Virus genome (UHGV): UHGV-1727221
Strand: one strand, 5' to 3'
From: a virus
DNA length: 14,789 bases
The position numbers and the translations under genes are program-made. Below are positions 1 through 14,789 of this stretch, piece by piece. The number at the start of each line of letters is the position of its first letter. Position 1 is the stretch's first letter. A model generated the notes under the pieces. It made no database searches. It was not told where the DNA came from and saw only the letters and a list, made by a program, of their open reading frames with translations.

Positions 1-55
1 CGGCATACGAGATTCCTCTACGTCTCGTGGGCTCGGAGATGTGTATAAGAGACAG
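1..55. other. Illumina Nextera library adapter (3' part of P7, 8-nt i7 index, Read-2 transposase adapter with Tn5 mosaic end); not biological sequence
   Basis: 1-13 cggcatacgagat matches the end of P7; 14-21 tcctctac is an 8-nt index; 22-55 gtctcgtgggctcggagatgtgtataagagacag matches the Nextera Read-2 adapter plus 19-nt mosaic end. The ORF-track start codon at 41 lies inside this adapter. Confidence 0.9.
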
Positions 56-553
56 GTAGATAAAGGTATCAAAGCCGAACTGTTTGAATCCATGCTTGGT
101 GGATTAAAAGAGCTCTTTGTTGAACACAACGTTGTTGTTCCAGAAGAATCAGTTGATGTTGTAGCTGAAATGGAAGAAGAGCTGCAAGAACATAAAGAAG
201 AATCAGCTCGTCTGTTCGAAGAACTCAATATGCGCGACGCATATATCAATTATGTGCAGCGTGAAGTGGCATTGAGCGAAAGTACTAAAGATCTGACTGA
301 GTCTCAAAAAGAAAAAGTCTCTGCTCTGGTCGAAGGTATGGATTATTCAGATGCATTCTCAAGTAAATTGAGTGCAATCGTAGAAATGGTGAAGAAGTCT
401 AATAAAGATGAAAGCACTATTACTGAGGGTATAAATACTCCTGATACTGAAGCAGCCGGACTAAATTTCGTCACTGAAGCTGTAGAAGATAAAGCTGCAC
501 AGGGTGCAGAAGATATTGTAAGTGTATATGCGAAAGTCGCATCTCGTTTCTAA
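56..553 (+). CDS. 22: Prohead core scaffold protein gp22, C-terminal fragment (5' end truncated by the adapter junction)
   Basis: Open frame continuous from the adapter junction to TAA at 551-553; acidic, low-complexity protein ending ...SVYAKVASRF, directly upstream of gene 23 as in T4. The true N-terminus is absent. Confidence 0.8.
   Translation, partial: VDKGIKAELFESMLGGLKELFVEHNVVVPEESVDVVAEMEEELQEHKEESARLFEELNMRDAYINYVQREVALSESTKDLTESQKEKVSALVEGMDYSDAFSSKLSAIVEMVKKSNKDESTITEGINTPDTEAAGLNFVTEAVEDKAAQGAEDIVSVYAKVASRF
430..437 (+). promoter_or_regulatory. T4-type late promoter box TATAAATA inside the 3' end of gene 22, candidate late promoter for gene 23
   Basis: Exact TATAAATA at 430-437, about 135 nt upstream of the gene 23 ATG (572). 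T4 late promoters (gp55/gp33-dependent) have this -10-like consensus. Confidence 0.45.
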
Positions 554-571
554 TTTTAAAGGTTAACACAA

Positions 572-2137
572 ATGACTATCAAAACTAAAGCTGAACTTTT
601 GAACAAATGGAAGCCATTACTGGAAGGTGAAGGTTTACCGGAAATTGCTAATAGCAAACAAGCGATTATCGCTAAAATCTTTGAAAACCAGGAAAAAGAT
701 TTCCAGACAGCTCCAGAATACAAAGACGAAAAAATTGCTCAGGCATTTGGTTCTTTCTTAACAGAAGCTGAAATCGGTGGTGACCACGGTTACAATGCTA
801 CTAACATCGCTGCAGGTCAGACTTCTGGCGCAGTAACTCAGATTGGCCCAGCTGTTATGGGTATGGTACGTCGTGCTATTCCTAACCTGATTGCTTTCGA
901 TATTTGTGGTGTTCAGCCAATGAACAACCCGACTGGCCAGGTATTCGCACTGCGCGCAGTATATGGTAAAGACCCGGTCGCTTCCGGTGCTAAAGAAGCA
1001 TTCCACCCAATGTATGGTCCAGATGCAATGTTCTCTGGTCAGGGTGCTGCTAAGAAATTCCCAGCTCTGGCTGCTAATACCACTACAGTCGTAGGTGACA
1101 TTTATTCTCACTTCTTCCAGGAAACTGGTACCGTATATCTGCAAGCTTCTGCTGTCGTAACACTTGATTCTAGCGCGACTGATGCTGCTAAATTAGATGC
1201 CGAAGTTAAAAAACAAATGGAAGCTGGTGCACTGGTAGAAATCGCTGAAGGTATGGCTACTTCTATCGCTGAACTTCAGGAAGGTTTCAACGGTTCTACC
1301 GATAACCCATGGAATGAAATGGGCTTCCGTATCGATAAACAAGTTATCGAAGCTAAATCTCGTCAGCTGAAAGCTGCTTACTCTATCGAATTAGCACAAG
1401 ACCTCCGCGCTGTTCACGGTATGGATGCTGATGCTGAACTGTCTGGTATTCTGGCTACAGAAATTATGCTGGAAATCAACCGCGAAGTTGTTGATTGGAT
1501 TAACTACTCAGCTCAGGTTGGTAAATCTGGTATGACCCTGACTCCGGGTTCTAAAGCTGGTGTATTTGACTTCCAGGACCCAATCGATATTCGTGGTGCT
1601 CGCTGGGCAGGTGAATCCTTTAAAGCTCTGTTGTTCCAGATTGACAAAGAAGCAGTTGAAATTGCTCGTCAGACTGGTCGTGGTGAAGGTAACTTCATTA
1701 TCGCTTCCCGTAACGTAGTTAACGTTCTGGCTTCAGTTGATACCGGCATTTCTTATGCTGCACAGGGTCTGGCTACCGGCTTCAACACTGATACTACCAA
1801 GTCAGTATTTGCTGGTGTTCTGGGTGGTAAATACCGTGTATATATCGACCAGTATGCTAAACAGGATTATTTCACTGTAGGTTATAAAGGTCCGAACGAA
1901 ATGGATGCTGGTATTTACTATGCTCCATATGTAGCTCTGACTCCGCTGCGTGGTTCCGATCCGAAGAACTTCCAACCGGTAATGGGATTCAAAACTCGTT
2001 ACGGTATCGGTATCAACCCATTTGCAGAATCCGCTGCTCAGGCTCCGGCTTCTCGCATCCAGAGCGGTATGCCTTCTATTCTGAATAGCCTTGGTAAAAA
2101 CGCTTACTTCCGCCGTGTATATGTTAAAGGTATCTAA
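572..2137 (+). CDS. 23: Major capsid protein gp23 (precursor)
   Basis: 521-aa ORF beginning MTIKTKAELLNKWKPLLEGEGLPEIANSKQAIIAKIFENQ and ending RRVYVKGI, near-identical to T4 gp23 as I recall it (also 521 aa); AAGG Shine-Dalgarno upstream. Confidence 0.97.
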   Translation: MTIKTKAELLNKWKPLLEGEGLPEIANSKQAIIAKIFENQEKDFQTAPEYKDEKIAQAFGSFLTEAEIGGDHGYNATNIAAGQTSGAVTQIGPAVMGMVRRAIPNLIAFDICGVQPMNNPTGQVFALRAVYGKDPVASGAKEAFHPMYGPDAMFSGQGAAKKFPALAANTTTVVGDIYSHFFQETGTVYLQASAVVTLDSSATDAAKLDAEVKKQMEAGALVEIAEGMATSIAELQEGFNGSTDNPWNEMGFRIDKQVIEAKSRQLKAAYSIELAQDLRAVHGMDADAELSGILATEIMLEINREVVDWINYSAQVGKSGMTLTPGSKAGVFDFQDPIDIRGARWAGESFKALLFQIDKEAVEIARQTGRGEGNFIIASRNVVNVLASVDTGISYAAQGLATGFNTDTTKSVFAGVLGGKYRVYIDQYAKQDYFTVGYKGPNEMDAGIYYAPYVALTPLRGSDPKNFQPVMGFKTRYGIGINPFAESAAQAPASRIQSGMPSILNSLGKNAYFRRVYVKGI

Positions 2138-2150
2138 TCTTTGACGATTT

Positions 2151-2182
2151 AAGGGACCTTCGGGTCCCTTTAGTTGTTTTTA
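2151..2182 (+). terminator. Intrinsic terminator-like hairpin after gene 23 (stem aagggacc / ggtccctt, UUCG tetraloop, then T-rich tract)
   Basis: Perfect 8-bp inverted repeat 2151-2158 / 2163-2170 around loop ttcg, followed by tagttgttttta. Confidence 0.55.
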
Positions 2183-2185
2183 TGG

Positions 2186-2193
2186 TATAAATA
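2186..2193 (+). promoter_or_regulatory. T4-type late promoter TATAAATA for gene 24
   Basis: Exact TATAAATA at 2186-2193, 27 nt upstream of the gene 24 ATG (2221), with AGGAA Shine-Dalgarno between. Confidence 0.55.
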
Positions 2194-2220
2194 AATCATA
2201 TAAACCAAAAGGAAAGCGCA

Positions 2221-3504
2221 ATGGCTAAAATCAACGAACTTCTGCGCGAATCAACCACAACGAATAGCAACTCAATCGGTCGCCCAAATCTCGTTGCTTT
2301 GACTCGCGCTACCACTAAATTAATATATTCTGACATTGTAGCAACGCAAAGAACTAATCAACCTGTTGCTGCTTTTTATGGTATCAAATACCTTAACCCA
2401 GACAATGAATTTACATTTAAAACTGGTGCTACTTACGCTGGCGAAGCCGGATATGTAGACCGAGAACAAATCACAGAATTAACAGAAGAGTCTAAATTAA
2501 CTCTCAATAAAGGCGATTTATTTAAATATAATAATATCGTTTATAAAGTATTAGAAGATACTCCATTTGCTGATATTGAAGAAAGCGACTTAGAGTTAGC
2601 TCTTCAGATTGCAATTGTTCTTTTAAAGGTTCGTCTATTTTCTGACGCAGCGTCAACAAGCAAATTTGAAAGCTCTGATAGCGAAATTGCGGATGCTAGA
2701 TTCCAGATTAATAAATGGCAAACCGCGGTTAAATCTCGTAAACTTAAAACTGGTATCACAGTTGAATTAGCGCAAGATTTAGAAGCAAATGGATTCGATG
2801 CTCCTAATTTCTTGGAAGATTTGCTTGCAACTGAAATGGCAGATGAAATCAATAAAGACATTCTGCAGTCTTTGATTACAGTGTCAAAACGCTATAAAGT
2901 TACAGGAATTACTGATAGCGGATTCATCGATTTGAGTTATGCATCTGCTCCTGAAGCTGGTCGTTCATTATATCGAATGGTATGTGAAATGGTTTCGCAT
3001 ATCCAAAAAGAATCAACTTATACAGCAACGTTTTGTGTTGCTTCAGCTCGTGCCGCTGCGATTCTTGCTGCATCAGGTTGGTTAAAACATAAACCAGAAG
3101 ATGACAAATATCTTTCACAAAATGCCTACGGGTTCTTAGCTAATGGTTTACCGCTTTATTGCGATACTAACAGCCCATTAGATTATGTAATCGTTGGTGT
3201 AGTAGAAAATATCGGTGAAAAAGAAATTGTTGGATCCATTTTCTATGCTCCGTATACAGAAGGTCTTGACTTAGATGACCCTGAACATGTGGGTGCATTT
3301 AAAGTTGTAGTCGATCCAGAAAGCTTGCAACCATCTATCGGTTTATTAGTTAGATATGCTTTATCAGCAAATCCTTATACCGTAGCAAAAGATGAAAAAG
3401 AAGCAAGAATAATTGACGGTGGAGACATGGATAAAATGGCGGGTCGTTCAGATTTGTCTGTTTTATTAGGTGTTAAATTACCAAAAATTATTATTGATGA
3501 ATAA
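2221..3504 (+). CDS. 24: Capsid vertex protein gp24 (paralog of gp23)
   Basis: 427-aa ORF (T4 gp24 is 427 aa as recalled), N-terminus MAKINELLRESTTTNS; internal similarity to gp23 (VELAQDL...LATEM..EIN versus IELAQDL...LATEI..EIN). Confidence 0.95.
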   Translation: MAKINELLRESTTTNSNSIGRPNLVALTRATTKLIYSDIVATQRTNQPVAAFYGIKYLNPDNEFTFKTGATYAGEAGYVDREQITELTEESKLTLNKGDLFKYNNIVYKVLEDTPFADIEESDLELALQIAIVLLKVRLFSDAASTSKFESSDSEIADARFQINKWQTAVKSRKLKTGITVELAQDLEANGFDAPNFLEDLLATEMADEINKDILQSLITVSKRYKVTGITDSGFIDLSYASAPEAGRSLYRMVCEMVSHIQKESTYTATFCVASARAAAILAASGWLKHKPEDDKYLSQNAYGFLANGLPLYCDTNSPLDYVIVGVVENIGEKEIVGSIFYAPYTEGLDLDDPEHVGAFKVVVDPESLQPSIGLLVRYALSANPYTVAKDEKEARIIDGGDMDKMAGRSDLSVLLGVKLPKIIIDE

Positions 3505-3507
3505 AAC

Positions 3508-3534
3508 AAAGGGACCGAAAGGTCCCTTTTTATT
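3508..3534. terminator. Bidirectional terminator-like hairpin between convergent genes 24 and rnlB (stem aaagggacc / ggtcccttt, GAAA tetraloop)
   Basis: Inverted repeat 3508-3516 / 3521-3529 with loop gaaa, flanked by A/T runs on both sides; lies between the gene 24 stop (3502-3504) and the rnlB stop (3534-3536, minus). Confidence 0.5.
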
Positions 3535-4538
3535 TAGCTCAACAACTCAATCCAAGCTGGACGAAGTACATCTTGTACCATTTTAACTAATTCCTTTTTA
3601 ATCAAAGAAGGATTATCTGCTTGAGTTAGAGTAATACCTTCACGAGAAGTTTCTTCCAAAATATCTTGGACAGTTAGACCCATCACCTTTCCAAAATCCT
3701 TTGGACCAATTTCACCAATTTTAGAAATAACGTTATTTACCCGGTTCAGTGTAACGTAACAAGCTAAAATTCCCACCAATTTGTTATCAGCTTCTGATAG
3801 CTCAACTTTAGCTTTAATAGGCTTATCAGACTTTTTCTTTTCACTAAATTTGGAATTCTTGCATTTAATTGCTACACGATTTCCATTATGAAGCCAAGAA
3901 GGATAACAAGGTTTCAATACATATCCTTCAGCAGTAAATACTTCGCCTTTTGCTTCGGCATTCCAAACGCATTTATTTGCATCAACTAATCCAGCATGGT
4001 CTACTGTAAAATTATAATCTTGGACGACAGAATCTAAATCATTTGGCAATTTAATAAGTTCTTCAAATTTACCGCGACCTAAAAGTGGAGCAATTTTAAA
4101 TTTAAATGTATTACAGAATGATTCCATCATATAATCGTCGACATAAGTCACATCACCACTTTCTGTAGTGACAATAATGTCAAATACATAAAAATCTTTA
4201 TCGCCATAATCGACATTCTTCTGAATGCCAGGTCCAGCGAATTCGCCAAAGACTTGATAAGATACAACCGCTGAGGTTTCCATAATATCTTGTACTGCTT
4301 TAATGGAATCAGCGTAATTCTTTAGAATAATTTCATACCCAAAGAAATCTTCAGCGGGAAGAATCGGTCCAGTACGCTTAGCGCAAGTTACTTTATCACG
4401 CTCAATAATCAATGAGAAATTTGTGCCGTGAATCTTTTCACGAGCTACCCACTCCCCACCAGTCAATCCCAAGCTATAAAGTTTTTCAATAAATTTAGAG
4501 TTGTAATGATTTTCAAGACTGCTATACTTTTTAAACAT
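3534..4538 (-). CDS. rnlB: RNA ligase 2 (Rnl2; ATP-dependent nick-sealing RNA ligase)
   Basis: 334-aa ORF matching T4 Rnl2 in length and sequence as recalled; covalent nucleotidyltransferase motif I KIHGTN (Lys35), motif IV-like EGYVLK and motif V-like AIKCKN are present. Confidence 0.95.
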
Positions 4539-4547
4539 AATTAATCC

Positions 4548-4826
4548 TCAAAATGTAATTTCTAACCAATCACCATCACGCTGATCACTATTGACTTTAA
4601 AGCTAAATCCTTCTTTTCTCAGCCAATCACCAATTTCTTCAGTAATCAATTTATCACGAGCAATACAATAATAACTAAAATGCGTTTTACCTTGTTCAGC
4701 TGCTTTATTAGCAAGTTCCGAAAAATCTTTAATAAAGCACTCTAGTTTAAACTGTTTACTTTTGAATGCTTTTTCGCGTAATTGATTAGCAAAAGATTCA
4801 TTTTCATAAAGATCATACTGTTCCAT
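4548..4826 (-). CDS. 24.2: Small hypothetical protein (T4 24.2 position)
   Basis: 92-aa ORF immediately downstream of rnlB on the same strand, 10-nt gap; the name is assigned from position in the T4 gene order, not from a recognised motif. Confidence 0.55.
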   Translation of the reverse strand: MEQYDLYENESFANQLREKAFKSKQFKLECFIKDFSELANKAAEQGKTHFSYYCIARDKLITEEIGDWLRKEGFSFKVNSDQRDGDWLEITF

Positions 4827-5028
4827 TTTTCACCTTTTTATTGATATGTCTTTTTCTATAGACAACTTTTTCTCGAGTTTCAAATTTATTCTTAGCAGTC
4901 ATAGCTCGAGCCCATAATACAGCCACTTCTTTTGCCTGTAAGTTCAATTCACGAGCAATTTCAATGAATGACTTTCCAGACTCATGAAGAGTAAACACCA
5001 CAACCTCAGTTCTCATAATCAATCTCAT
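4813..5028 (-). CDS. 24.3: Small hypothetical protein with a probable helix-turn-helix (T4 24.3 position)
   Basis: 71-aa ORF overlapping the 24.2 start by 14 nt; contains an HTH-like segment SGKSFIEIARELNLQAKEVAVLWARA and a basic C-terminus. Confidence 0.5.
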   Translation of the reverse strand: MRLIMRTEVVVFTLHESGKSFIEIARELNLQAKEVAVLWARAMTAKNKFETREKVVYRKRHINKKVKNGTV

Positions 5029-5095
5029 GTTATCGAGTTGGTGCCATTATATACATCATTTTCTGATTGTGTTTTGTGTGCTTTCAAAATGAAGA

Positions 5096-5113
5096 AAGGG
5101 GCCGAAGCCCCTT
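5096..5113 (-). terminator. Hairpin 4 nt downstream of the hoc stop (stem aaggggc / gcccctt; the loop reads UUCG on the minus-strand transcript)
   Basis: Inverted repeat 5096-5102 / 5107-5113 around a 4-nt loop; sits between hoc (stop 5118-5120) and the 24.3 start. Confidence 0.45.
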
Positions 5114-5117
5114 ATGA

Positions 5118-6533
5118 TTATGGATAGGTATAGATGATACCAGTTTCTAAAGCAGTTTTGTGAATGATGTATCCATTACGTGATTCTTGGACATCAACTT
5201 CTGGATAGTCTTTCATCATCTTCTGAAGAGTGTAACGATGCAAGTAATACTTACTACCCGGATCGTCAATTTTCCAATCTTTACCTTCTTCAGTCATTTT
5301 TTGGATTTCATCCATAACCCACCAACCGCACCAGATGTAAGCTGAAGTACGATGTGGAAGAGGATGAACATAAGGTAGTTCACCTTCTGGTTCAATTGGA
5401 GTCCGTTCAGCAATAACAACTTCAGCTGTTGAACTAATTGTCTTTGAAGTGTAATTATCTTTAGTTAATACTGCTTCAACTTTAATTGTATGAGTACCCG
5501 CTGAGGAGGTATCAATACTATAAGTATTAGTAGAATTACTTTCTGCTACGTTGTCTTTCTTCCAAGAGTACACAATATTAGTATCACCAGGAGCACCAGT
5601 AACAGATGCTGTTAAAGTTGCAGTTCCACCAACAGTAGTATTAACTGATGGCGGAGATAAAGAAATGGTGGCACTATTAAATGTCGCATTATTAGTTACT
5701 ACTGTTGCTTCTGCTGAAATTTCTTTTGTAACATAATTTGTTGCAGAAACAGATGCGGTGCATTTAAGAGTTTTACTTCCGACTTCGGTCGGAGTGAATT
5801 TATACGTAGCAGAAGTTGCATCCGGAATATTACTGTCATCCATTGACCATTGGAATGTTATAGTAGCACCTGAAGGTGCACTAGAGACATTTGCAGTTAA
5901 AGTAATAGGAACACCAAAGACTGTAGTCGGAGACTCGGGTGTAATTTTTAGCGTCGAAGAATTAGCCTTTTTATTTACAGTCAAAGAAACCGCTGATGAT
6001 TCTACTGTTTTATCAACGTAATCAGTTGCAGTCACTGTGACAGAGCAAGTTATAGACTTAGTTCCTTCAGTTGTTGGTGTATATTCAAAGGTTGATTGCT
6101 TTTGACCGTCAACAGCGACCCCGTCAACTTTCCATGTATAATCAATAGCAGCACCAGTAGGTTGATTGCTTACATTAGCAGTGAATGTTGTTGCTGTTCC
6201 AATTTCTACTGCTGCAGGAGAAGCCGGAGTAACAGTGATAGTGGAATTATTTTCTTTCTTATTAACAGTGATAGTTGTTGATGCTTCAGCTATTTCCGGA
6301 TCTCCTGCGGAAAGTGTATTAGTTGCAACCACTTTAATTTTTTTTGTTCCTGCTGGAGAAGCAAGAGTATAATCCATTGTAGCAGCCGTAGAGCCCTGTG
6401 TTATATCATCTACAGTCCAGACGTATGTAATAGTACCATCTGGAGTTTCACCTGCAGGTGTAGCAGTGAATGTTTGTGAACCTCCAATAACCCCTGTAGG
6501 AGTTAGAGGAGATAACGTGACAGTGAATGCCAT
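5118..6533 (-). CDS. hoc: Highly immunogenic outer capsid protein Hoc, enlarged variant with four tandem Ig-like modules plus a C-terminal capsid-binding domain
   Basis: 471-aa ORF rich in Thr/Ser/Val with four repeats of about 90-95 aa (pattern T(F/L)TA(N/S)V..P.G..I.Y.W..D(D/G/N)...K.I.C.); conserved C-terminus ...YIWCGWWVMDEIQKMTEEGKDWK...IIYTYP; located between 24.3 and inh as in T4. Confidence 0.85.
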   Translation of the reverse strand: MAFTVTLSPLTPTGVIGGSQTFTATPAGETPDGTITYVWTVDDITQGSTAATMDYTLASPAGTKKIKVVATNTLSAGDPEIAEASTTITVNKKENNSTITVTPASPAAVEIGTATTFTANVSNQPTGAAIDYTWKVDGVAVDGQKQSTFEYTPTTEGTKSITCSVTVTATDYVDKTVESSAVSLTVNKKANSSTLKITPESPTTVFGVPITLTANVSSAPSGATITFQWSMDDSNIPDATSATYKFTPTEVGSKTLKCTASVSATNYVTKEISAEATVVTNNATFNSATISLSPPSVNTTVGGTATLTASVTGAPGDTNIVYSWKKDNVAESNSTNTYSIDTSSAGTHTIKVEAVLTKDNYTSKTISSTAEVVIAERTPIEPEGELPYVHPLPHRTSAYIWCGWWVMDEIQKMTEEGKDWKIDDPGSKYYLHRYTLQKMMKDYPEVDVQESRNGYIIHKTALETGIIYTYP

Positions 6534-6542
6534 AAGTTATCC

Positions 6543-7223
6543 TTATTTTAATGTTACGAAAGAAGAGTTGCGTGTTTCACGAATTAAAACTGATCCGTCA
6601 CGGTTAATGTAATAAATTAAGCTAAATAAAGTTTGGTGTGCTGACGCATGTTCAAAACTAGTTGGGTGAGATTTCCAATCAGGAGTTTCAGCAATCCATT
6701 GATAAATCCACCAAGGAACAGTACAGAATCCTGGATTTTTTCCAATCAACTGAAGATTTGGGCTAAAGTTTTCCGGAAGAGTAAATACAGACGGCTTTTC
6801 AGATTCAATAATCTCAGCTACAGCCTGTTCAAATTTTTCTTCAACAAATGGAGTATCTTCAATCAAAACTGAGGTATTTTCAGGAATTTTATCCGTTTCT
6901 ACTACTTCAATTTTAATGTCAGATTTAACCGGAGAATCAATCAAAAGTGCTGCTTCTGGATTGACTTCTTCATCGTCATATTTTAACCCCTCTGCAGCAT
7001 CAGCAGCATCAATTAAGTCTTTAATAGATAACCCATCAGTCTCCGGCATAGGTTCACTAGCGAGCTTCTGGAGGGCTTCTTCAATATCAACAACGATATT
7101 ATCAAAAGATTTATTCTTTTTGACCTTTATACCAAACTGTTCAGCATATTCAGCTAATTTAGCTTTAGCTTCTTTGTTATCATCAAGAGCCTTCAGCTCT
7201 GCAATATAATCTTTATCTATCAT
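6543..7223 (-). CDS. inh: Inhibitor of prohead protease gp21 (Inh)
   Basis: 226-aa ORF (T4 Inh is 226 aa as recalled) directly upstream of hoc on the minus strand, separated by 9 nt; acidic N-terminal half. Confidence 0.8.
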   Translation of the reverse strand: MIDKDYIAELKALDDNKEAKAKLAEYAEQFGIKVKKNKSFDNIVVDIEEALQKLASEPMPETDGLSIKDLIDAADAAEGLKYDDEEVNPEAALLIDSPVKSDIKIEVVETDKIPENTSVLIEDTPFVEEKFEQAVAEIIESEKPSVFTLPENFSPNLQLIGKNPGFCTVPWWIYQWIAETPDWKSHPTSFEHASAHQTLFSLIYYINRDGSVLIRETRNSSFVTLK

Positions 7224-7236
7224 AATATTTCCTCAG

Positions 7237-7244
7237 TATAAATA
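7237..7244 (+). promoter_or_regulatory. T4-type late promoter TATAAATA upstream of uvsW
   Basis: Exact TATAAATA at 7237-7244, 29 nt upstream of the uvsW ATG (7274), in the 50-bp inh-uvsW intergenic region. Confidence 0.5.
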
Positions 7245-7273
7245 TAGATATATTTATTACATGGTATTTAGAC

Positions 7274-8785
7274 ATGACTGACATTAAAGTACATTTTTAT
7301 GATTTTAGTCACGTGAGAATTGATTGTGAAGAAAGTACATTTCATGAACTCCGTGATTTCTTTAGCTTTGAAGCTGATGGGTATCGTTTTAATCCGAAAT
7401 ACAGATATGGCAACTGGGATGGACGAATCCGTCTTTTAGATTATAATCGTCTTCTTCCATTCGGCTTAGTCGGGCAAATTAAAAAGTTCTGTGATAACTT
7501 TGGCTATAAAGCCTGGATTGACCCGCAGATTAACGAAAAAGAAGAATTATCAAGAAAAGATTTTGATGAATGGCTTTCTAAATTAGAAATCTATTCAGGA
7601 AATAAAAGAATTGAACCACACTGGTATCAAAAAGATGCAGTGTTCGAAGGATTAGTTAATCGTCGTAGAATTCTTAATCTTCCAACATCCGCTGGTAAAT
7701 CTTTAATTCAAGCTTTGCTTGCGCGGTATTATTTGGAAAATTATGAAGGTAAAATTCTTATCATTGTTCCAACAACTGCTTTAACAACTCAGATGGCTGA
7801 TGACTTTGTTGACTATCGTTTATTCAGTCATGCAATGATAAAGAAAATCGGTGGTGGAGCATCAAAAGATGATAAATATAAAAATGATGCACCAGTCGTT
7901 GTTGGTACATGGCAAACTGTAGTAAAACAACCGAAAGAGTGGTTCTCCCAATTTGGTATGATGATGAATGATGAATGTCATCTTGCTACAGGAAAAAGTA
8001 TTTCATCTATCATATCAGGTTTAAATAACTGCATGTTCAAATTCGGTTTGTCTGGTTCATTACGTGATGGCAAAGCCAATATCATGCAGTATGTTGGAAT
8101 GTTTGGTGAAATATTTAAGCCAGTAACGACTTCTAAGTTAATGGAAGATGGACAAGTAACTGAGCTAAAAATTAATAGTATTTTTCTTCGCTATCCCGAT
8201 GAGTTCACTACTAAATTAAAGGGAAAAACTTACCAAGAAGAAATAAAAATTATTACTGGGCTTAGTAAAAGAAATAAATGGATCGCTAAATTAGCTATTA
8301 AGCTTGCGCAAAAAGATGAAAACGCTTTTGTCATGTTTAAACATGTATCGCATGGTAAAGCTATTTTCGATTTAATTAAAAATGAATACGATAAAGTTTA
8401 TTACGTATCAGGGGAAGTTGATACCGAAACCCGCAATATAATGAAAACCTTAGCTGAAAACGGTAAAGGAATAATTATAGTAGCTAGTTATGGTGTATTT
8501 TCTACTGGTATTTCAGTTAAAAATCTGCATCACGTTGTTTTAGCGCATGGTGTTAAATCAAAAATCATTGTATTACAAACAATCGGTCGTGTATTACGTA
8601 AGCATGGTTCTAAAACAATCGCAACCGTCTGGGACCTCATAGATGATTGTGGTGTTAAGCCAAAATCTGCTAATACTAAAAAGAAATATGTTCATTTGAA
8701 CTATCTTTTAAAACACGGCATTGATCGTATTCAGCGCTACGCAGATGAAAAATTTAATTACGTAATGAAAACAGTTAATTTATAA
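7274..8785 (+). CDS. uvsW: UvsW DNA/RNA helicase (SF2, recombination-repair; branch migration)
   Basis: 503-aa ORF beginning MTDIKVHFYDFSHVRIDCEE; Walker A LPTSAGKS, motif II DECH, SF2 C-terminal motifs (QTIGRVLR); matches T4 UvsW as recalled. Confidence 0.95.
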   Translation: MTDIKVHFYDFSHVRIDCEESTFHELRDFFSFEADGYRFNPKYRYGNWDGRIRLLDYNRLLPFGLVGQIKKFCDNFGYKAWIDPQINEKEELSRKDFDEWLSKLEIYSGNKRIEPHWYQKDAVFEGLVNRRRILNLPTSAGKSLIQALLARYYLENYEGKILIIVPTTALTTQMADDFVDYRLFSHAMIKKIGGGASKDDKYKNDAPVVVGTWQTVVKQPKEWFSQFGMMMNDECHLATGKSISSIISGLNNCMFKFGLSGSLRDGKANIMQYVGMFGEIFKPVTTSKLMEDGQVTELKINSIFLRYPDEFTTKLKGKTYQEEIKIITGLSKRNKWIAKLAIKLAQKDENAFVMFKHVSHGKAIFDLIKNEYDKVYYVSGEVDTETRNIMKTLAENGKGIIIVASYGVFSTGISVKNLHHVVLAHGVKSKIIVLQTIGRVLRKHGSKTIATVWDLIDDCGVKPKSANTKKKYVHLNYLLKHGIDRIQRYADEKFNYVMKTVNL

Positions 8786-8799
8786 GGGCTTCGGCCCTT
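8784..8799 (+). promoter_or_regulatory. UUCG-tetraloop hairpin overlapping the uvsW stop codon and abutting the uvsW.1 Shine-Dalgarno (possible terminator, RNA-stability or translational control element)
   Basis: Stem aagggc (8784-8789) / gccctt (8794-8799) with loop ttcg; the uvsW stop TAA is 8783-8785; GGAG at 8801-8804 and the uvsW.1 ATG at 8811. Confidence 0.45.
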
Positions 8800-8810
8800 T
8801 GGAGAAAAAG

Positions 8811-9041
8811 ATGTTACTAGAATTTAAACAATTTCTTTATGAAGCTTCTATTGATGAATTTATGGGTAAAATTGCCTCTTGTCAAACATTAGAAGGTTTA
8901 GAAGAACTTGAAGCTTATTATAAGAAAAGAGTCAAAGAAACTGAATTAAAAGATACTGATGACATCTCTGTGAGAGATGCTTTGGCAGGAAAAAGAGCTG
9001 AATTAGAAGATTCAGACGATGAAGTAGAAGAAAGCTTTTAA
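8811..9041 (+). CDS. uvsW.1: UvsW.1 small acidic protein (UvsW-associated)
   Basis: 76-aa ORF from ATG 8811 preceded by GGAG at 6-nt spacing. The ORF track's 80-aa version begins at a TTG at 8799 inside the hairpin; the ATG is preferred. T4 UvsW.1 is 76 aa as recalled. Confidence 0.7.
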   Translation: MLLEFKQFLYEASIDEFMGKIASCQTLEGLEELEAYYKKRVKETELKDTDDISVRDALAGKRAELEDSDDEVEESF

Positions 9042-9050
9042 ATTAAAAAA

Positions 9051-9072
9051 GGCCCAACCAAAAAGGAAGGGC
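9051..9072 (-). terminator. Possible terminator hairpin for the minus-strand uvsY-cluster transcript (stem ggccc / gggcc, 12-nt loop, A/T runs either side)
   Basis: Inverted repeat 9051-9055 / 9068-9072; on the minus strand it is followed by the U-run complementary to aaaaaa at 9045-9050. The large loop makes this less certain. Confidence 0.35.
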
Positions 9073-9114
9073 CAAAACTATAGACTAAAGGTCACACTAT
9101 AGCAAAAGTTGTGT

Positions 9115-9264
9115 TTCATTTAATTGTTCTTCCGAACTTTCTGAAACTGGTAGTTCTTTAATGTAATTATAGCAAGGCCCAGGATGTACAGGACCTTTGT
9201 CTGTTTCAACAACCAATGCAGAATCGATTGGAGTTTTACAGACAACACAAATCTTATCTGACAT
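9115..9264 (-). CDS. uvsY.-2: Small Cys-containing protein, 49 aa (T4 uvsY.-2 position); absent from the supplied ORF track
   Basis: Manual minus-strand translation from ATG (complement of 9262-9264) gives MSDKICVVCKTPIDSALVVETDKGPVHPGPCYNYIKELPVSESSEEQLK then stop (complement of 9115-9117); strong GAGGAG Shine-Dalgarno 6 nt upstream (complement of 9271-9276). Confidence 0.55.
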
Positions 9265-9289
9265 GATTGTCTCCTCTGAATTATATATC

Positions 9290-9297
9290 TATTTATA
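9290..9297 (-). promoter_or_regulatory. Minus-strand late promoter box TATAAATA upstream of uvsY.-2
   Basis: Plus strand reads tatttata at 9290-9297 (TATAAATA on the minus strand), about 26 nt upstream of the uvsY.-2 ATG and overlapping the uvsY.-1 stop codon. Confidence 0.4.
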
Positions 9298-9517
9298 CAA
9301 CTCTCATATGCATATCAATGCCCATATCTTTAGAATAAAAATATTCATCAAGATATCCGGCAAATTTTCCTTTAATATAAAGGACATCTTCACCACACGG
9401 GTGATCGGCCAAGATACGAATATCCTGACGCTTAAGATTATGCTTTTTCATTAAGAATTGAATCTCAGTTTCAAATTCTTCTTCATAATTAAAAGCATCA
9501 TCAATGCTATATCTCAT
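9293..9517 (-). CDS. uvsY.-1: Small hypothetical protein downstream of uvsY (T4 uvsY.-1 position)
   Basis: 74-aa ORF whose ATG overlaps the uvsY stop (TAATG on the minus strand at 9515-9519), implying translational coupling. Confidence 0.65.
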   Translation of the reverse strand: MRYSIDDAFNYEEEFETEIQFLMKKHNLKRQDIRILADHPCGEDVLYIKGKFAGYLDEYFYSKDMGIDMHMRVV

Positions 9518-9930
9518 TATTTTCCAGCCTCAAATGCTCGCATGTCTTGAATATGCTTAATAGCAAATCCGCGTGATTTGATAGCATCAAGAGCTCCGCT
9601 ACAGAAATCTAATAAAATCCCCCAATACTGTAACGAGGTATCAACCTTTAAAACATCCTTATCCGCTGATAGAACTGTCTTCATTTCTGATTTCTCGTAA
9701 CGATCCATACTAAATTCATCACCATCTCCTCGTCCCGAGTAGTAGTCTAATTTAGCTTTAAGAGCAACTTTTTTCTGTGCATCAATTCTAAGCATTTCCT
9801 TTTTAATACTTGAATGCTTATTAAGCCATTTACTATATAACATCACATTATTAGCTGCTTCATACTGTAATTTAGTCGAATCTATAAACACATCTTTCTT
9901 CAATTCTTCTTGAAGATCTTCTAATTTCAT
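9517..9930 (-). CDS. uvsY: UvsY recombination mediator protein (loads UvsX recombinase onto gp32-coated ssDNA)
   Basis: 137-aa ORF beginning MKLEDLQEELKKDVFIDSTKLQYEAANNVMLYSKWL; length and sequence match T4 UvsY as recalled. Confidence 0.93.
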   Translation of the reverse strand: MKLEDLQEELKKDVFIDSTKLQYEAANNVMLYSKWLNKHSSIKKEMLRIDAQKKVALKAKLDYYSGRGDGDEFSMDRYEKSEMKTVLSADKDVLKVDTSLQYWGILLDFCSGALDAIKSRGFAIKHIQDMRAFEAGK

Positions 9931-9970
9931 ATTGTTCTCTATTCAATTGTTATTGGATGGACTTAGATTC

Positions 9971-9996
9971 ATTATACCACGTTTATACGTGAAGCA
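9971..9996 (-). promoter_or_regulatory. T4 middle-mode (MotA/AsiA-dependent) promoter for uvsY: MotA box TGCTTCA plus sigma70-type -10 TATAAT
   Basis: Minus strand reads ataaTGCTTCAcgtataaacgtggTATAATgaatc: MotA box at plus 9990-9996 immediately after the gene 25 stop, 13-nt spacer, -10 hexamer at plus 9971-9976, about 35-40 nt upstream of the uvsY ATG (9930). Confidence 0.6.
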
Positions 9997-10395
9997 TTAT
10001 ACTCTATTACTGGAAGCCAGTTGCAGTTTTATCTGCTCAATATCATCAGGATTATCGATGACCGAAAAGCGTATTTCTACTATCAGAGTATAATCATCAT
10101 AAACTGGTATCACATTAACTGCTAATTTATCAATACGTGGCTCATAGTTTCTTACTGCGCTTTCGATATTGCGCTCAACTGTGTCAGCAGTAAGAGGAGT
10201 CATATTTTCAAAAAGCTGGTCTGATAAATCACATCCAAATTCAGGGTCAAACGGTCTTGAACCTTTTCTTGTTGTAATAATTCCCAAAAGACTGTTTTTA
10301 ATTGACCTTAATCCAAGCGATCTGGAAACGTCTTTGTTCCAATCCATTTTCATTTCCGGGTCAATATCAGAATAAAGCTTATTAATATTTGCCAT
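9997..10395 (-). CDS. 25: Baseplate wedge protein gp25 (lysozyme-like fold)
   Basis: 132-aa ORF beginning [29 protein letters not shown]; size and sequence match T4 gp25 as recalled; its ATG overlaps the gene 26 stop (TAATG). Confidence 0.93.
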   Translation of the reverse strand: MANINKLYSDIDPEMKMDWNKDVSRSLGLRSIKNSLLGIITTRKGSRPFDPEFGCDLSDQLFENMTPLTADTVERNIESAVRNYEPRIDKLAVNVIPVYDDYTLIVEIRFSVIDNPDDIEQIKLQLASSNRV

Positions 10396-11021
10396 TATAG
10401 TAACTCAAAGAACTCTTTGAGGCCTCTTATTACGTGAGCATGAGTTTTTCCACACTCTGGACACTTAATTGGAACAGCCAAATAAACGGTAGGCTTTAAA
10501 AGCATATCTTTTATAGCTACAATATCTGACTCTGTGATGATAGAATATAAATCTTCCAGTTCTTTTTCATTTAAGTCTTCAACTGGAATGCTTTCCCCGT
10601 TAGCATGAATCGTTTCTATGCATGATACTATCATGTGGGCTATATTTTTATCATCAAAAATTTTAGGGTATCGGAATTTAATTTTAATGTCACCCAGTGT
10701 ATACCAGAGGTCTTCTGGTGCATCTATTTGTGTATGTAATAGATTTATATGGGTTGGTATTTCAGTTCCACAGGTGCACTTCCAGGAGTTTTCGTGATTA
10801 ACTTCACCGAGAGAATGTGCCCATAAATGAATCAACAATAGTTCTGATTCTTGGCGGTTTAAATCTTTTGCATTTGTGCAGTCTTTGATTAGCTTTTTAA
10901 CAATTACTTCTACGGAACCATTATTTTTGGCAGTAATAAGTTCTAGATATTCTTTAAGCGTGAATGCGCGACAATTGATTATTTTAGAACCAACTCTCAC
11001 ATCAAATTTGTATTCATACAT
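10395..11021 (-). CDS. 26: Baseplate hub protein gp26
   Basis: 208-aa ORF (T4 gp26 is 208 aa as recalled); contains two Cys pairs (CTCG ... CPECG) suggestive of a zinc-ribbon; AAGGAG Shine-Dalgarno upstream on the minus strand. Confidence 0.85.
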
Positions 11022-11042
11022 ATTTAGCTCCTTTATTTATCA

Positions 11043-11054
11043 TATTTATAAATA
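11043..11054. promoter_or_regulatory. Palindromic bidirectional late promoter tatttataaata serving divergent genes 26 (minus) and 51 (plus)
   Basis: Plus-strand TATAAATA at 11047-11054 (gene 51 ATG at 11072, AAGGAG at 11061-11066) overlaps a minus-strand TATAAATA (plus tatttata at 11043-11050; gene 26 ATG at 11021). Confidence 0.55.
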
Positions 11055-11071
11055 GAATAAAAGGAGCATCT

Positions 11072-11821
11072 ATGGCAAACATTATTCGTTGTAAATTACC
11101 AGATGGTGTTCATCGTTTTAAACCATTTACGGTAGAAGATTATCGAGATTTTTTGTTAGTTCGAAACGATATAGAACATCGGTCACCACAAGAACAAAAA
11201 GAAATAATTACTGATTTAATTGATGATTATTTTGGAGACTATCCGAAGACTTGGCAACCATTTATATTTTTGCAGGTATTTGTAGGGTCGATAGGTAAAA
11301 CTAAAGTACCGGTCACATTTGTATGTCCAAAATGTAAAAAAGAAAAGACAGTTCCATTTGAAATATATCAAAAAGAATTAAAGGAACCTGTTTTTGATGT
11401 AGCTAATGTTAAAATTAAATTAAAGTTTCCTTCTGAGTTTTATGAAAATAAAGCAAAGATGATTACTGAAAATATTCATTCTGTTCAAGTAGATGAAATA
11501 TGGTATGATTGGAAGGAAATTAGTGAATCAAGCCAAATAGAACTTGTTGATGCCATCGAGATAGAAACATTAGAAAAAATTCTCGATGCAATGAATCCTA
11601 TTAATTTAACTCTACATATGTCATGCTGTAATAAGTACATTAAAAAATACACTGATATAGTAGACGTGTTTAAGCTATTAGTTAATCCAGATGAGATATT
11701 TACTTTTTATCAAATTAATCACACACTCGTAAAAAGTAATTATAGCTTAAATTCAATAATGAAAATGATTCCTGCTGAACGTGGATTCGTATTAAAACTG
11801 ATTGAGAAGGATAAACAATAA
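11072..11821 (+). CDS. 51: Baseplate hub assembly catalyst gp51
   Basis: 249-aa ORF (T4 gp51 is 249 aa as recalled); Cys pairs CPKC ... CC; its stop overlaps the gene 27 ATG (TAATG at 11819-11823). Confidence 0.85.
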
Positions 11822-12993
11822 TGAGTATGTTGCAACGCCCCGGATATCCAAATCTCAGCGTTAAATTATTTGATAGCTACGACGCTTGGAGTAATAATAG
11901 ATTTGTTGAATTAGCTGCTACTATTACTACATTAACTATGCGGGATTCTCTTTATGGCCGAAATGAAGGAATGCTACAGTTTTATGATTCTAAAAACATC
12001 CATACAAAAATGGATGGAAATGAAATAATTCAGATTTCTGTAGCTAATGCAAATGATATTAATAATGTTAAAACACGAATTTATGGATGTAAGCATTTTT
12101 CCGTGTCAGTAGATTCAAAAGGTGATAACATCATTGCTATTGAATTGGGAACTATTCATTCTATAGAAAATCTTAAATTTGGTAGACCATTTTTCCCTGA
12201 TGCTGGTGAATCTATAAAGGAAATGCTTGGCGTCATTTATCAGGATCGCACATTATTAACTCCAGCAATAAATGCTATAAATGCTTATGTTCCTGATATT
12301 CCATGGACTAGCACATTTGAAAACTATTTGTCATATGTCAGAGAAGTTGCTCTAGCTGTAGGAAGCGACAAATTTGTATTTGTGTGGCAAGACATCATGG
12401 GAGTTAACATGATGGACTATGATATGATGATAAATCAAGAACCATATCCAATGATTGTCGGTGAGCCATCTTTAATAGGTCAATTTGTCCAAGAATTAAA
12501 ATATCCATTAGCATATGATTTCGTTTGGTTGACTAAATCGAATCCTCACAAACGTGACCCAATGAAAAATGCTACTATCTATGCTCATTCATTTTTAGAT
12601 TCTTCATTGCCAATGATTACTACAGGAAAGGGTGAAAACTCTATTGTGGTGTCAAGGTCAGGTGCTTATTCTGAAATGACTTATAGGAATGGATATGAAG
12701 AAGCTATTCGTCTTCAAACTATGGCACAATATGACGGCTATGCTAAATGTTCTACTGTCGGTAATTTTAACTTGACTCCTGGTGTTAAAATTATTTTTAA
12801 TGATAGTAAAAACCAATTTAAAACAGAATTTTACGTTGATGAAGTTATCCATGAATTATCCAATAATAATTCAGTAACTCATCTATATATGTTCACTAAT
12901 GCAACGAAACTGGAAACAATAGACCCAGTTAAGGTTAAAAATGAATTTAAATCTGATACTACCACTGAAGAAAGTAGTTCTTCCAATAAGTAA
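11821..12993 (+). CDS. 27: Baseplate hub protein gp27 (forms the central hub with gp5)
   Basis: 390-aa ORF beginning [23 protein letters not shown]; matches T4 gp27 (about 391 aa as recalled). Confidence 0.93.
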
Positions 12994-13474
12994 TAAAGAA
13001 GTTTCTATTCCTAAAATGGGTCTTAAACATTATAACATTTTAAAAGATGTTAAAGGTCCTGATGAAAATTTAAAACTTCTTATTGATTCTATTTGTCCGA
13101 ATTTATCACCGACAGAAGTTGATTTCGTTTCTATTCATTTATTGGAATTTAATGGAAAGATTAAATCTCGTAAAGAAATAGATGGCTATACTTATGACAT
13201 TAATGATGTTTATGTGTGCCAAAGATTAGAATTTCAATACCAAGGAAATACATTTTATTTTAGACCTCCTGGAAAATTTGAACAATTTTTAACAGTGAGC
13301 GATATGTTATCTAAATGCTTGCTTAAGGTCAACGATGAAGTTAAAGAAATTAATTTTCTTGAGATGCCAGCATTCGTTTTAAAATGGGCAAATGATATTT
13401 TTACAACTTTAGCAATTCCTGGCCCTAATGGTCCAATAACTGGAATTGGCAATATTATTGGATTATTTGAATGA
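12941..13474 (+). CDS. 28: Baseplate hub distal subunit gp28
   Basis: 177-aa ORF (T4 gp28 is 177 aa as recalled) starting in the +1 frame 53 nt before the gene 27 stop; AAGG 6 nt upstream of the ATG; its stop overlaps the gene 29 ATG (ATGA at 13471-13474). Confidence 0.8.
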
Positions 13475-14747
13475 AAAAGCCACAAGAAATGCAAACGATG
13501 CGTAGAAAAGTTATTTCAGATAATAAACCAACGCAGGAAGCGGCTAAATCCGCTTCCAACACTTTATCTGGACTTAATGATATATCTACGAAATTGGATG
13601 ATGCTCAAGCTGCTTCTGAATTAATAGCTCAAACTGTCGAAGAAAAATCGAATGAAATAGTTGGAGCAATTGGTAACGTAGAAAGCGCAGTGAGTGATAC
13701 TACTGCCGGTTCTGAGTTAATTGCTGAAACTGTCGAAATTGGCAACAATATTAATAAAGAAATCGGTGAATCGCTAGGAAGCAAATTAGATAAATTAACA
13801 AGTTTACTAGAGCAAAAAATTCAGACAGCTGGAATTCAACAGACTGGAACTAGTTTAGCCACAGTTGAAAGCGCTATTCCTGTTAAAGTCGTTGAGGATG
13901 ATACTGCCGAATCTGTGGGTCCTTTATTACCGGCTCCCGAAGCAGTTAATAATGATCCTGACGCTGATTTTTTCCCTACCCCTCAACCAGTTGAACCCAA
14001 ACAAGAATCGCCAGAAGAAAAACAGAAAAAAGAAGCATTTAACTTAAAATTATCTCAAGCTTTAGATAAATTAACAAAGACTGTTGATTTTGGATTTAAG
14101 AAATCCATTTCAATTAGTGATAAAATATCAAGCATGTTATTTAAGTACACCATCAGTGCTGCTATTGAAGCCGCTAAAATGACTGCAATGATATTGGCTG
14201 TTGTTGTTGGAATAGACCTGTTGATGGTTCATTTTAAATACTGGTCAGATAAATTTTCAAAAGCCTGGGATTTATTTAATACTGACTTTACTAAATTCTC
14301 TAGCGAAACCGGAACTTGGGGTCCTTTATTACAGAGCATCTTTGATTCTATTGATAAAATTAAACAACTTTGGGAAGCGGGAGATTGGGGTGGATTGACA
14401 GCAGCTATCGTAGAAGGACTCGGAAGTGTTCTTTTTAATTTAGGAGAGCTTATTCAATTAGGTATGGCTAAATTATCTGCTGCAATTCTTCGAGTCATTC
14501 CTGGTATGAAGGATACCGCTGATGAAGTAGAAGGAGGAGCATTGGAAAATTTCCAAAATTCTACTGGAGCATCTCTCAATAAAGAAGACCAAGAAAAAGT
14601 TGCAAATTATCAAGATAAACGAATGAATGGAGACCTTGGTCCGATAGCAAAAGGATTAGATAAAATTGCTAATTGGAAAACTCGTGCATCTAATTGGATT
14701 CGTGGTGTTGATAATAAAGAAGCACTAACTACCGACGAAGAGCGTGC
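13471..14747 (+). CDS. 29: Baseplate hub / tail-length determining protein gp29, N-terminal 425 codons (3' end truncated at the adapter junction)
   Basis: Frame open from ATG 13471 ([22 protein letters not shown]...) with no stop up to the adapter junction at 14748; absent from the ORF track because it has no stop in the window. T4 gp29 is about 590 aa as recalled. Confidence 0.85.
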
Positions 14748-14789
14748 CTGTCTCTTATACACATCTGACGCTGCCGACGAAGCTAGAAG
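14748..14789. other. Illumina Nextera read-through adapter (Tn5 mosaic end reverse complement, Read-1 adapter reverse complement, i5 index, first base of P5 reverse complement); not biological sequence
   Basis: 14748-14766 ctgtctcttatacacatct is the mosaic-end reverse complement; 14767-14780 gacgctgccgacga is the Read-1 adapter reverse complement; 14781-14788 agctagaa is an 8-nt index; 14789 g. Confidence 0.9.

Follow-up and report, generated by a model that had tools for sequence, protein, structure and literature searches.

The two ends of the window, by which we mean the whole 14,789-nucleotide stretch of virus genome UHGV-1727221 analysed here, are almost certainly leftover Illumina Nextera (Tn5 tagmentation) dual-index adapter from an N712/S515-indexed library, carried into the assembly through untrimmed reads. 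They are a routine and well-known contamination artefact and hold no phage biology. We describe below the adapter at each end, the extent of the phage sequence between them, the two genes with false termini, and the recurrence of the same adapter in other public records.

Structure and identity of the left-end adapter

The first 55 bases of the window reproduce, without a mismatch, the final 55 nt of the i7-side adapter model, CAAGCAGAAGACGGCATACGAGAT + TCCTCTAC + GTCTCGTGGGCTCGG + AGATGTGTATAAGAGACAG. From the contig end towards the insert, the features are:

1..13, + strand: 3' part of the P7 flow-cell sequence, 13 of 24 nt, CGGCATACGAGAT (exact match)
14..21, + strand: i7 index in primer orientation, TCCTCTAC, which is Nextera N712, with index read GTAGAGGA (exact match and published tables)
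22..36, + strand: Nextera Read-2 sequencing-primer site, GTCTCGTGGGCTCGG, directly 5' of the mosaic end (exact match)
37..55, + strand: Tn5 mosaic end, 19 nt, AGATGTGTATAAGAGACAG, adjoining the insert (exact match)

The window opens in the order CGGCATACGAGAT-TCCTCTAC-GTCTCGTGGGCTCGG-AGATGTGTATAAGAGACAG and continues on the phage side with GTAGATAAAGG... All 13 nt of the P7 sequence present 5' of the index match, and the other 11 nt lie beyond the contig end. An exact match of 55 nt has a chance of about 4^-55 per position. Allowing up to three mismatches, the 19-nt mosaic end has two copies in the window, at 37-55 (+) and 14748-14766 (-); dinucleotide-preserving shuffles gave a mean of 0.01 matches, and none of the 200 reached two. 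The last three nucleotides of the mosaic end (CAG) equal the phage sequence by chance, so that the left junction is ambiguous by 3 nt.

A previous interpretation made without database searches (hereafter, the sequence-only reading) had described bases 1-55 as the P7 tail, an index, the Read-2 adapter, and the Tn5 mosaic end, and the adapter screen bears this out exactly over the 55 nt. It had also assigned the index to N712 and flagged the assignment for checking. Two papers make the same assignment, with the N712 primer given as ...GAGAT-TCCTCTAC-... and the index read as GTAGAGGA (PMC7589761 Appendix B; PMC7845766). The complete P7 string, CAAGCAGAAGACGGCATACGAGAT, is in the primer table of the former (PMC7589761).

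The right-end adapter and the index pair

The 42 nt at the right end of the window are adapter too, a point absent from the sequence-only reading, which covered the left end only. Positions 14748-14789 are the exact reverse complement of the mosaic end, the Read-1 site, the i5 index, and one P5 base. In other words, the suffix of the window equals the first 42 nt of the reverse-complemented P5+i5+R1+ME adapter (R1, Read-1 site; ME, mosaic end), with the mosaic end adjoining the insert:

14748..14766, - strand: Tn5 mosaic end, reverse complement, + strand CTGTCTCTTATACACATCT (exact match)
14767..14780, - strand: Nextera Read-1 sequencing-primer site TCGTCGGCAGCGTC, reverse complement, + strand GACGCTGCCGACGA (exact match)
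14781..14788, - strand: i5 index TTCTAGCT, which is S515, + strand AGCTAGAA (exact match and published table)
14789..14789, - strand: first base of the reverse-complemented P5 sequence (G of GTGTAGATCTCGG...), 1 of 29 nt (exact match)

Read on the + strand, this end is CTGTCTCTTATACACATCT-GACGCTGCCGACGA-AGCTAGAA-G. The arrangement faces outwards at both ends (P7-i7-R2-ME>insert<ME-R1-i5-P5, where R2 is the Read-2 site), and the window is a contig capped on both sides by Nextera adapters of an N712/S515-indexed library. The pair may be from set C of the Nextera XT Index Kit v2. The identity of S515 as TTCTAGCT is published (PMC7589761 Appendix B), and the published labels of the two indices, N712-A and S515-C, do not bear out an assignment of the pair to index set B (PMC7589761).

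Compared with the known Nextera and Nextera XT dual-index adapters, every base of 1-55 and 14748-14789 agrees, in the same order and with both mosaic ends facing the insert. The one difference is that the contig stops within the flow-cell sequences, which leaves 13 of the 24 nt of P7 and 1 of the 29 nt of P5.

Extent of the phage sequence and integrity of the interior

When the first 1,500 bases were searched by megablast against a set of 50,697 phage records, 1,054 of these matched. Among the matches listed, which are T4-like records, the alignments start throughout at query base 56 or 59. More than 1,000 T4-like records align to the window and, among the matches listed, none of the alignments enters bases 1-55. 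At the other end, a search with the last 1,190 bases found homology up to window base 14747 and no further. The relatives hold no counterpart of 1-55, the limits of homology coincide exactly with both adapter boundaries, and the end-specific searches give the same break points.

The whole window matches Escherichia phage Paracelsus (Tequatrovirus) as a single collinear piece, 56..14747, at 97.3% identity. Aligned with MAFFT, the two segments (14,692 nt against 14,692 nt) show 393 mismatches and not a single gap. The gene order is 22, 23, 24, rnlB, two small ORFs, hoc, inh, uvsW, small ORFs, uvsY, 25, 26, 51, 27, 28, and 29, which matches the 22-23-24-rnlB-hoc-inh-uvsW-uvsY-25-26-51-27-28-29 order of Tequatrovirus genomes. 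No further copies of the mosaic end were found inside the window at three mismatches or fewer. The sequence-only reading had warned that adapter-derived ends can create false gene starts, false termini, and chimeric joins. The first two occur here, in genes 22 and 29, as detailed below. The third does not apply to the interior: the lack of an internal mosaic end and the gap-free alignment of 14,692 nt with Paracelsus rule out internal chimeric joins.

We also considered base 58, which is A in the window and T in the T4-like relative PP01 and in the near-identical contig described below, as an error beside the junction. This was rejected, since Paracelsus also has A and the change is synonymous; as judged from the aligned sequences, base 58 is a natural variant.

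Several features of the interior concern variation among these phages. The ORF of Hoc (head outer capsid, or "whisker", protein) at 5118-6533 on the - strand encodes 471 aa with only faint Ig-like/PKD Pfam hits, and a protein identical to it is found on at least 10 public contigs. The Hoc of T4 has 376 aa, and the greater length in the window suggests an extra Ig-like domain. Genes 51 and 27 are each one codon shorter than in Paracelsus, by a change of CAA to TAA just before the usual stop (11819-11821 and 12991-12993, respectively). Their lengths (249 and 390 aa) are the same in the contigs L244 and L246, and these early stops are therefore a lineage variant and not an error. Some close relatives carry additional genes that are lacking in the window. 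An extra 233-aa ORF without Pfam hit adjoins a broken or short gene 23 call in two of them (L242 14374-16585 and L245 14374-15463). Another has a GIY-YIG (SegE-like) gene between uvsW and inh (L243 8533-9273), and PP01 has segD after gene 23 (L001 3332-3808). This is the homing-endonuclease variability typical of T4-like phages, and the corresponding sites of the window are "empty".

False start of gene 22 and false tail of gene 29

Both adapters adjoin a gene that is cut by the end of the phage sequence:

41..553, + strand: artefactual ORF of 170 aa, an adapter GTG start within five adapter codons fused in frame to codons 105-269 of gene 22
56..553, + strand: genuine 3' part of gene 22 (prohead scaffolding core protein), residues 105-269 and the stop
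13471..14747, + strand: genuine 5' part of gene 29 (baseplate hub / tail-length determinator), 425 codons and 2 nt of 590

The first five codons of the ORF at 41..553 are GTG TAT AAG AGA CAG (V/M-Y-K-R-Q), and all lie within the mosaic end. The sequence-only reading had derived the start codon and the residues MYKRQ from the adapter. The origin of the five codons holds, and the start codon needs correction: it was called an ATG and is the GTG at 41-43, read as methionine only through initiation. There is an ATG at 39-41, in a different frame (frame 3), where it meets a TAG at 57-59.

The gene 22 product of PP01 has 269 aa, and codon 105 of that gene begins at window base 56. Visual comparison finds no difference between residues 6-170 of the window ORF and residues 105-269 of the PP01 protein. 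A full-length gp22 would have 269 aa, with 104 N-terminal residues before VDKGIK...; the window ORF has 165 genuine residues and five that are coded by the adapter. Set against the gp22 of T4 (269 aa), the window copy lacks the first 104 residues and gains these five. The N-terminus of the annotated protein is an artefact, as had been proposed: homology to PP01 begins at codon 105, and the adapter supplies the five preceding residues. The expected upstream continuation of gene 22 in T4-like relatives is also found, as 104 further residues in PP01 and as uninterrupted sequence in the near-identical contig. The frame is open from base 2, so that a gene caller accepting partial genes would lengthen the protein by 18 residues coded by the adapter. 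Of the two possible artefactual gp22 products, the partial one from base 2 and the one with a methionine start from base 41, neither is on record.

At the right end, the phage part of gene 29 stops in codon 426 of 590, and 14 adapter-coded codons are appended (A-CLLYTSDAADEAR). The reading frame runs through the adapter as ...EERA-CLLYTSDAADEAR.

A near-identical contig passes the left junction

Looking up the Hoc protein of the window led to a contig of the metagenome assembly ENA ERZ652393, NODE_65_length_20875_cov_6.45 (L244), which we reverse-complemented for comparison. Over window positions 56-14747, NODE_65 has 10 mismatches (99.93% identity), at 58, 973, 976, 977, 10557, 10563, 10575, 13216, 13905, and 13908. 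Clustered as they are, these differences suggest either that one sample contained two close T4-like strains or that a single library was assembled twice. NODE_65 carries the identical 42-nt adapter stub on the right, at its own contig end. On the left, window bases 1-55 are replaced in it by ...TTCTAAATTCATTGACCATCTTGCAAAAGAATGGCTCGCTGAAAATAAATTAGCAG, which is the gene 22 sequence also present in PP01. Past the position that corresponds to base 56, it holds a complete gene 22 of 269 aa, then genes 21, 68, 67, 20, 19, and 18. This part beyond the left junction spans 4,883 nt in the stretch compared, out of the 20,875 nt of the contig. NODE_65 is virtually the same phage, probably from the same or a sister library, and the comparison comes near to the re-assembly proposed in the sequence-only reading. 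Its name is of the SPAdes style and its coverage is 6.45, a low value that fits a situation in which single read-through reads decide where contigs end.

This contig bears on the possibility that the window was amplified by long-range PCR from locus-specific primers with Illumina overhang tails (as in two-step 16S-style indexing), in which case the adapters would mark primer sites and not Tn5 cuts. The 33- and 34-nt tails are indeed widespread as amplicon overhangs. The 34-mer of positions 22-55 opens the overhang or tailed-primer term, and it is printed together with its Read-1 counterpart in 3,293 papers. However, there is no design logic in where the phage sequence ends, at codon 105 of gene 22 and codon 426 of gene 29, both in the middle of genes; the sister contig NODE_65, from a metagenome assembly, continues beyond the left end; and an amplicon of 14.7 kb could not be clustered whole on an Illumina flow cell. 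We consider an amplicon origin exceedingly improbable, and the ends would be synthetic under it as well.

The same adapter in other records

In GenBank, 43 phage records match the 55-mer, and the hosts of these phages include Bacillus, Listeria, Streptococcus, Staphylococcus, Acinetobacter, Pseudomonas, and E. coli. The full-length matches have 87-93% identity, as expected if only the 8-nt index differs. In IMG/VR, the 34-nt Read-2 and mosaic-end adapter occurs in at least 120 stretches. Among the IMG/VR matches listed, 123 of the 124 occurrences of the i7-side adapter lie within 60 nt of the end of the stretch, and the 12-mers downstream of it take 123 distinct values in 124 cases. The 8-mer upstream takes 28 values among the same matches, with TCCTCTAC (N712) found 10 times, and the P7 tail matches in 98 of 102 cases. 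We take 26 of the 28 upstream 8-mers to belong to the Nextera i7 list. The 33-nt Read-1 adapter also occurs in at least 120 IMG/VR stretches and is bound to ends in the same manner, with the S515 8-mer found four times among the matches listed. Taken together, the two adapter types, with other Nextera indices, cap more than 240 unrelated IMG/VR contig-stretch ends, many of them from metagenome 3300045988. Some of the IMG/VR loci (L003-L241) are shorter than their contigs, and for these "end" refers to the end of the stretch and not of the contig; loci as long as their contigs show the same pattern.

In an ordinary adapter-contaminated public assembly, the adapter lies at the terminus, faces outwards, and has a variable kit index between constant flanks. 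The window shares these traits and differs in nothing material; here, the adapter is in frame with a cut gene, hence the GTG start. Contamination of this kind at contig ends is what the NCBI VecScreen and FCS-adaptor screens target. We searched the literature for a paper devoted to adapter contamination of assemblies and found routine method mentions only. An ORF of at least 60 aa starts at the GTG of the mosaic end, with the false M/V-Y-K-R-Q N-terminus, in 42 of 246 adapter-bearing IMG/VR ends (17%).

The sequence-only reading would have been undermined by other phage genomes carrying the 55-nt sequence in the same context. The 55-mer does recur, and its contexts always differ: the same stretch is found at the ends of unrelated sequences with different neighbours. 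The 36-mer that spans the junction (41-76) is absent from viral (IMG/VR), JGI metagenome, and GTDB genome contigs.

These results leave a vanishingly small probability that the 55 nt are a genuine biological sequence, be it a natural Tn5 end or a segment encoded by the phage. The mosaic end is an engineered hybrid of the outside end and the inside end of Tn5, and it resembles both. In the window, however, a synthetic mosaic end stands next to primer, index, and flow-cell sequences that are specific to Illumina. A natural Tn5 insertion, in which native outside and inside ends would bound transposon genes within host DNA, is not what we see: the mosaic-end copies face outwards at the contig ends, and the interior holds only T4 genes, with no transposase, resistance gene, or mosaic-end copy inside the phage sequence. 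The interior, free of transposon genes, also aligns without gaps to Paracelsus. The absence of any listed alignment into 1-55 among the more than 1,000 T4-like records, and the recurrence of the stretch, each time with another kit index, at the ends of contigs that are unrelated, argue in the same direction. We found no point in favour of a biological sequence.

Adapters at both ends, as in the window, are found in nine IMG/VR stretches among the matches listed, of which five have the same type twice and four are mixed. A molecule with the same type twice is not sequenceable as one library fragment, and two-ended adapters therefore arise during assembly. This is relevant to whether the whole window could be one long Nextera molecule, with an insert of 14.7 kb, read end to end on a long-read platform. 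The P7/i7 side on the left and the P5/i5 side on the right do have the mutual orientation of one valid library molecule. Yet a mixed pair is expected half the time by chance, and four of the nine two-ended stretches listed are mixed. Both adapters are shortened, P7 to 13 of its 24 nt and P5 to 1 of its 29 nt, unlike what the reading of a full-length molecule would give, and inserts of 15 kb are not normally amplified by Nextera index PCR. NODE_65 has the same right stub, yet passes the left junction, and it bears a short-read-assembler name and a coverage of 6.45. We regard a single long molecule as very unlikely.

Adapter is also found inside some records. RefSeq NC_054919.1 (Escherichia phage vB_EcoM_G4507) holds a complete internal P7 + N710 (CAGCCTCG) + Read-2 + mosaic-end sequence (L124 1381-1620, about 76585-76824 of the genome). 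Poly-T runs and a mosaic-end fragment precede it, and it is flanked by a direct duplication of about 53 nt of gene 5. The CDSs on either side of it are both annotated as "baseplate hub subunit and tail lysozyme", the product of gene 5. Further internal matches to the 55-mer include those in MT584805 (within "DNA polymerase"), MK327937, MK327945, LR535910, and MH973725.

How the adapter-capped contig may have arisen

The leftover-adapter explanation implies a simple sequence of events. Two separate short library molecules would have had Tn5 cuts at bases 56 and 14747. With inserts shorter than the read length, Read 1 of the first would have run into ME-R2-i7-P7, which is seen reverse-complemented at the left end, and Read 2 of the other would likewise have run into ME-R1-i5-P5, giving the right end. 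Adapter trimming may have been omitted or incomplete. The assembler would then have used these read-through reads at the contig edges, with no further extension; an assembler stops at the adapter because it is common to every library molecule. Finally, the gene caller, faced with an adapter that is open in frame 2 and has a GTG in the mosaic end, would have produced the 170-aa "gene 22" that begins M-Y-K-R-Q and the gene 29 with 14 additional codons.

The stubs end 13 nt into P7 and 1 nt into P5. We considered whether the 55-nt stub reflects a default SPAdes k value. Among the IMG/VR matches listed, stub lengths vary between 33 and 76 nt and cluster at 46-49 and at 76, but not at 55, and we rejected this idea as unsupported.

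Implications for annotation and databases

The significance of these observations is one of data hygiene, and the evidence leaves no biological reading of the adapter open. In the window, the adapter creates a false start and N-terminus of gene 22 and a false C-terminal extension of gene 29. More generally, contig termini made by adapters could pass for genome ends, and a sequence common to thousands of unrelated contigs can give rise to false overlaps or chimeric joins. It is a widespread problem, as shown by the 43 GenBank phage records, the more than 240 IMG/VR contig-stretch ends, and one RefSeq genome of a T4-like phage (NC_054919.1).

Because one frame of the mosaic end is open and a GTG lies within it, the false peptides may be systematic. 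It is conceivable, although we would not presume it, that adapter-ended contigs regularly yield proteins that start with M/V-Y-K-R-Q or end with ...CLLYTSDAADE, and that these tags could serve to screen protein databases. If true, this would be a quality-control idea for finding adapter-derived false termini and not a matter of biology, possibly new only as a practical point. For the phage at hand, the remedy is to trim both adapter stretches (1-55 and 14748-14789) and to mark gene 22 as partial at its 5' end and gene 29 as partial at its 3' end.
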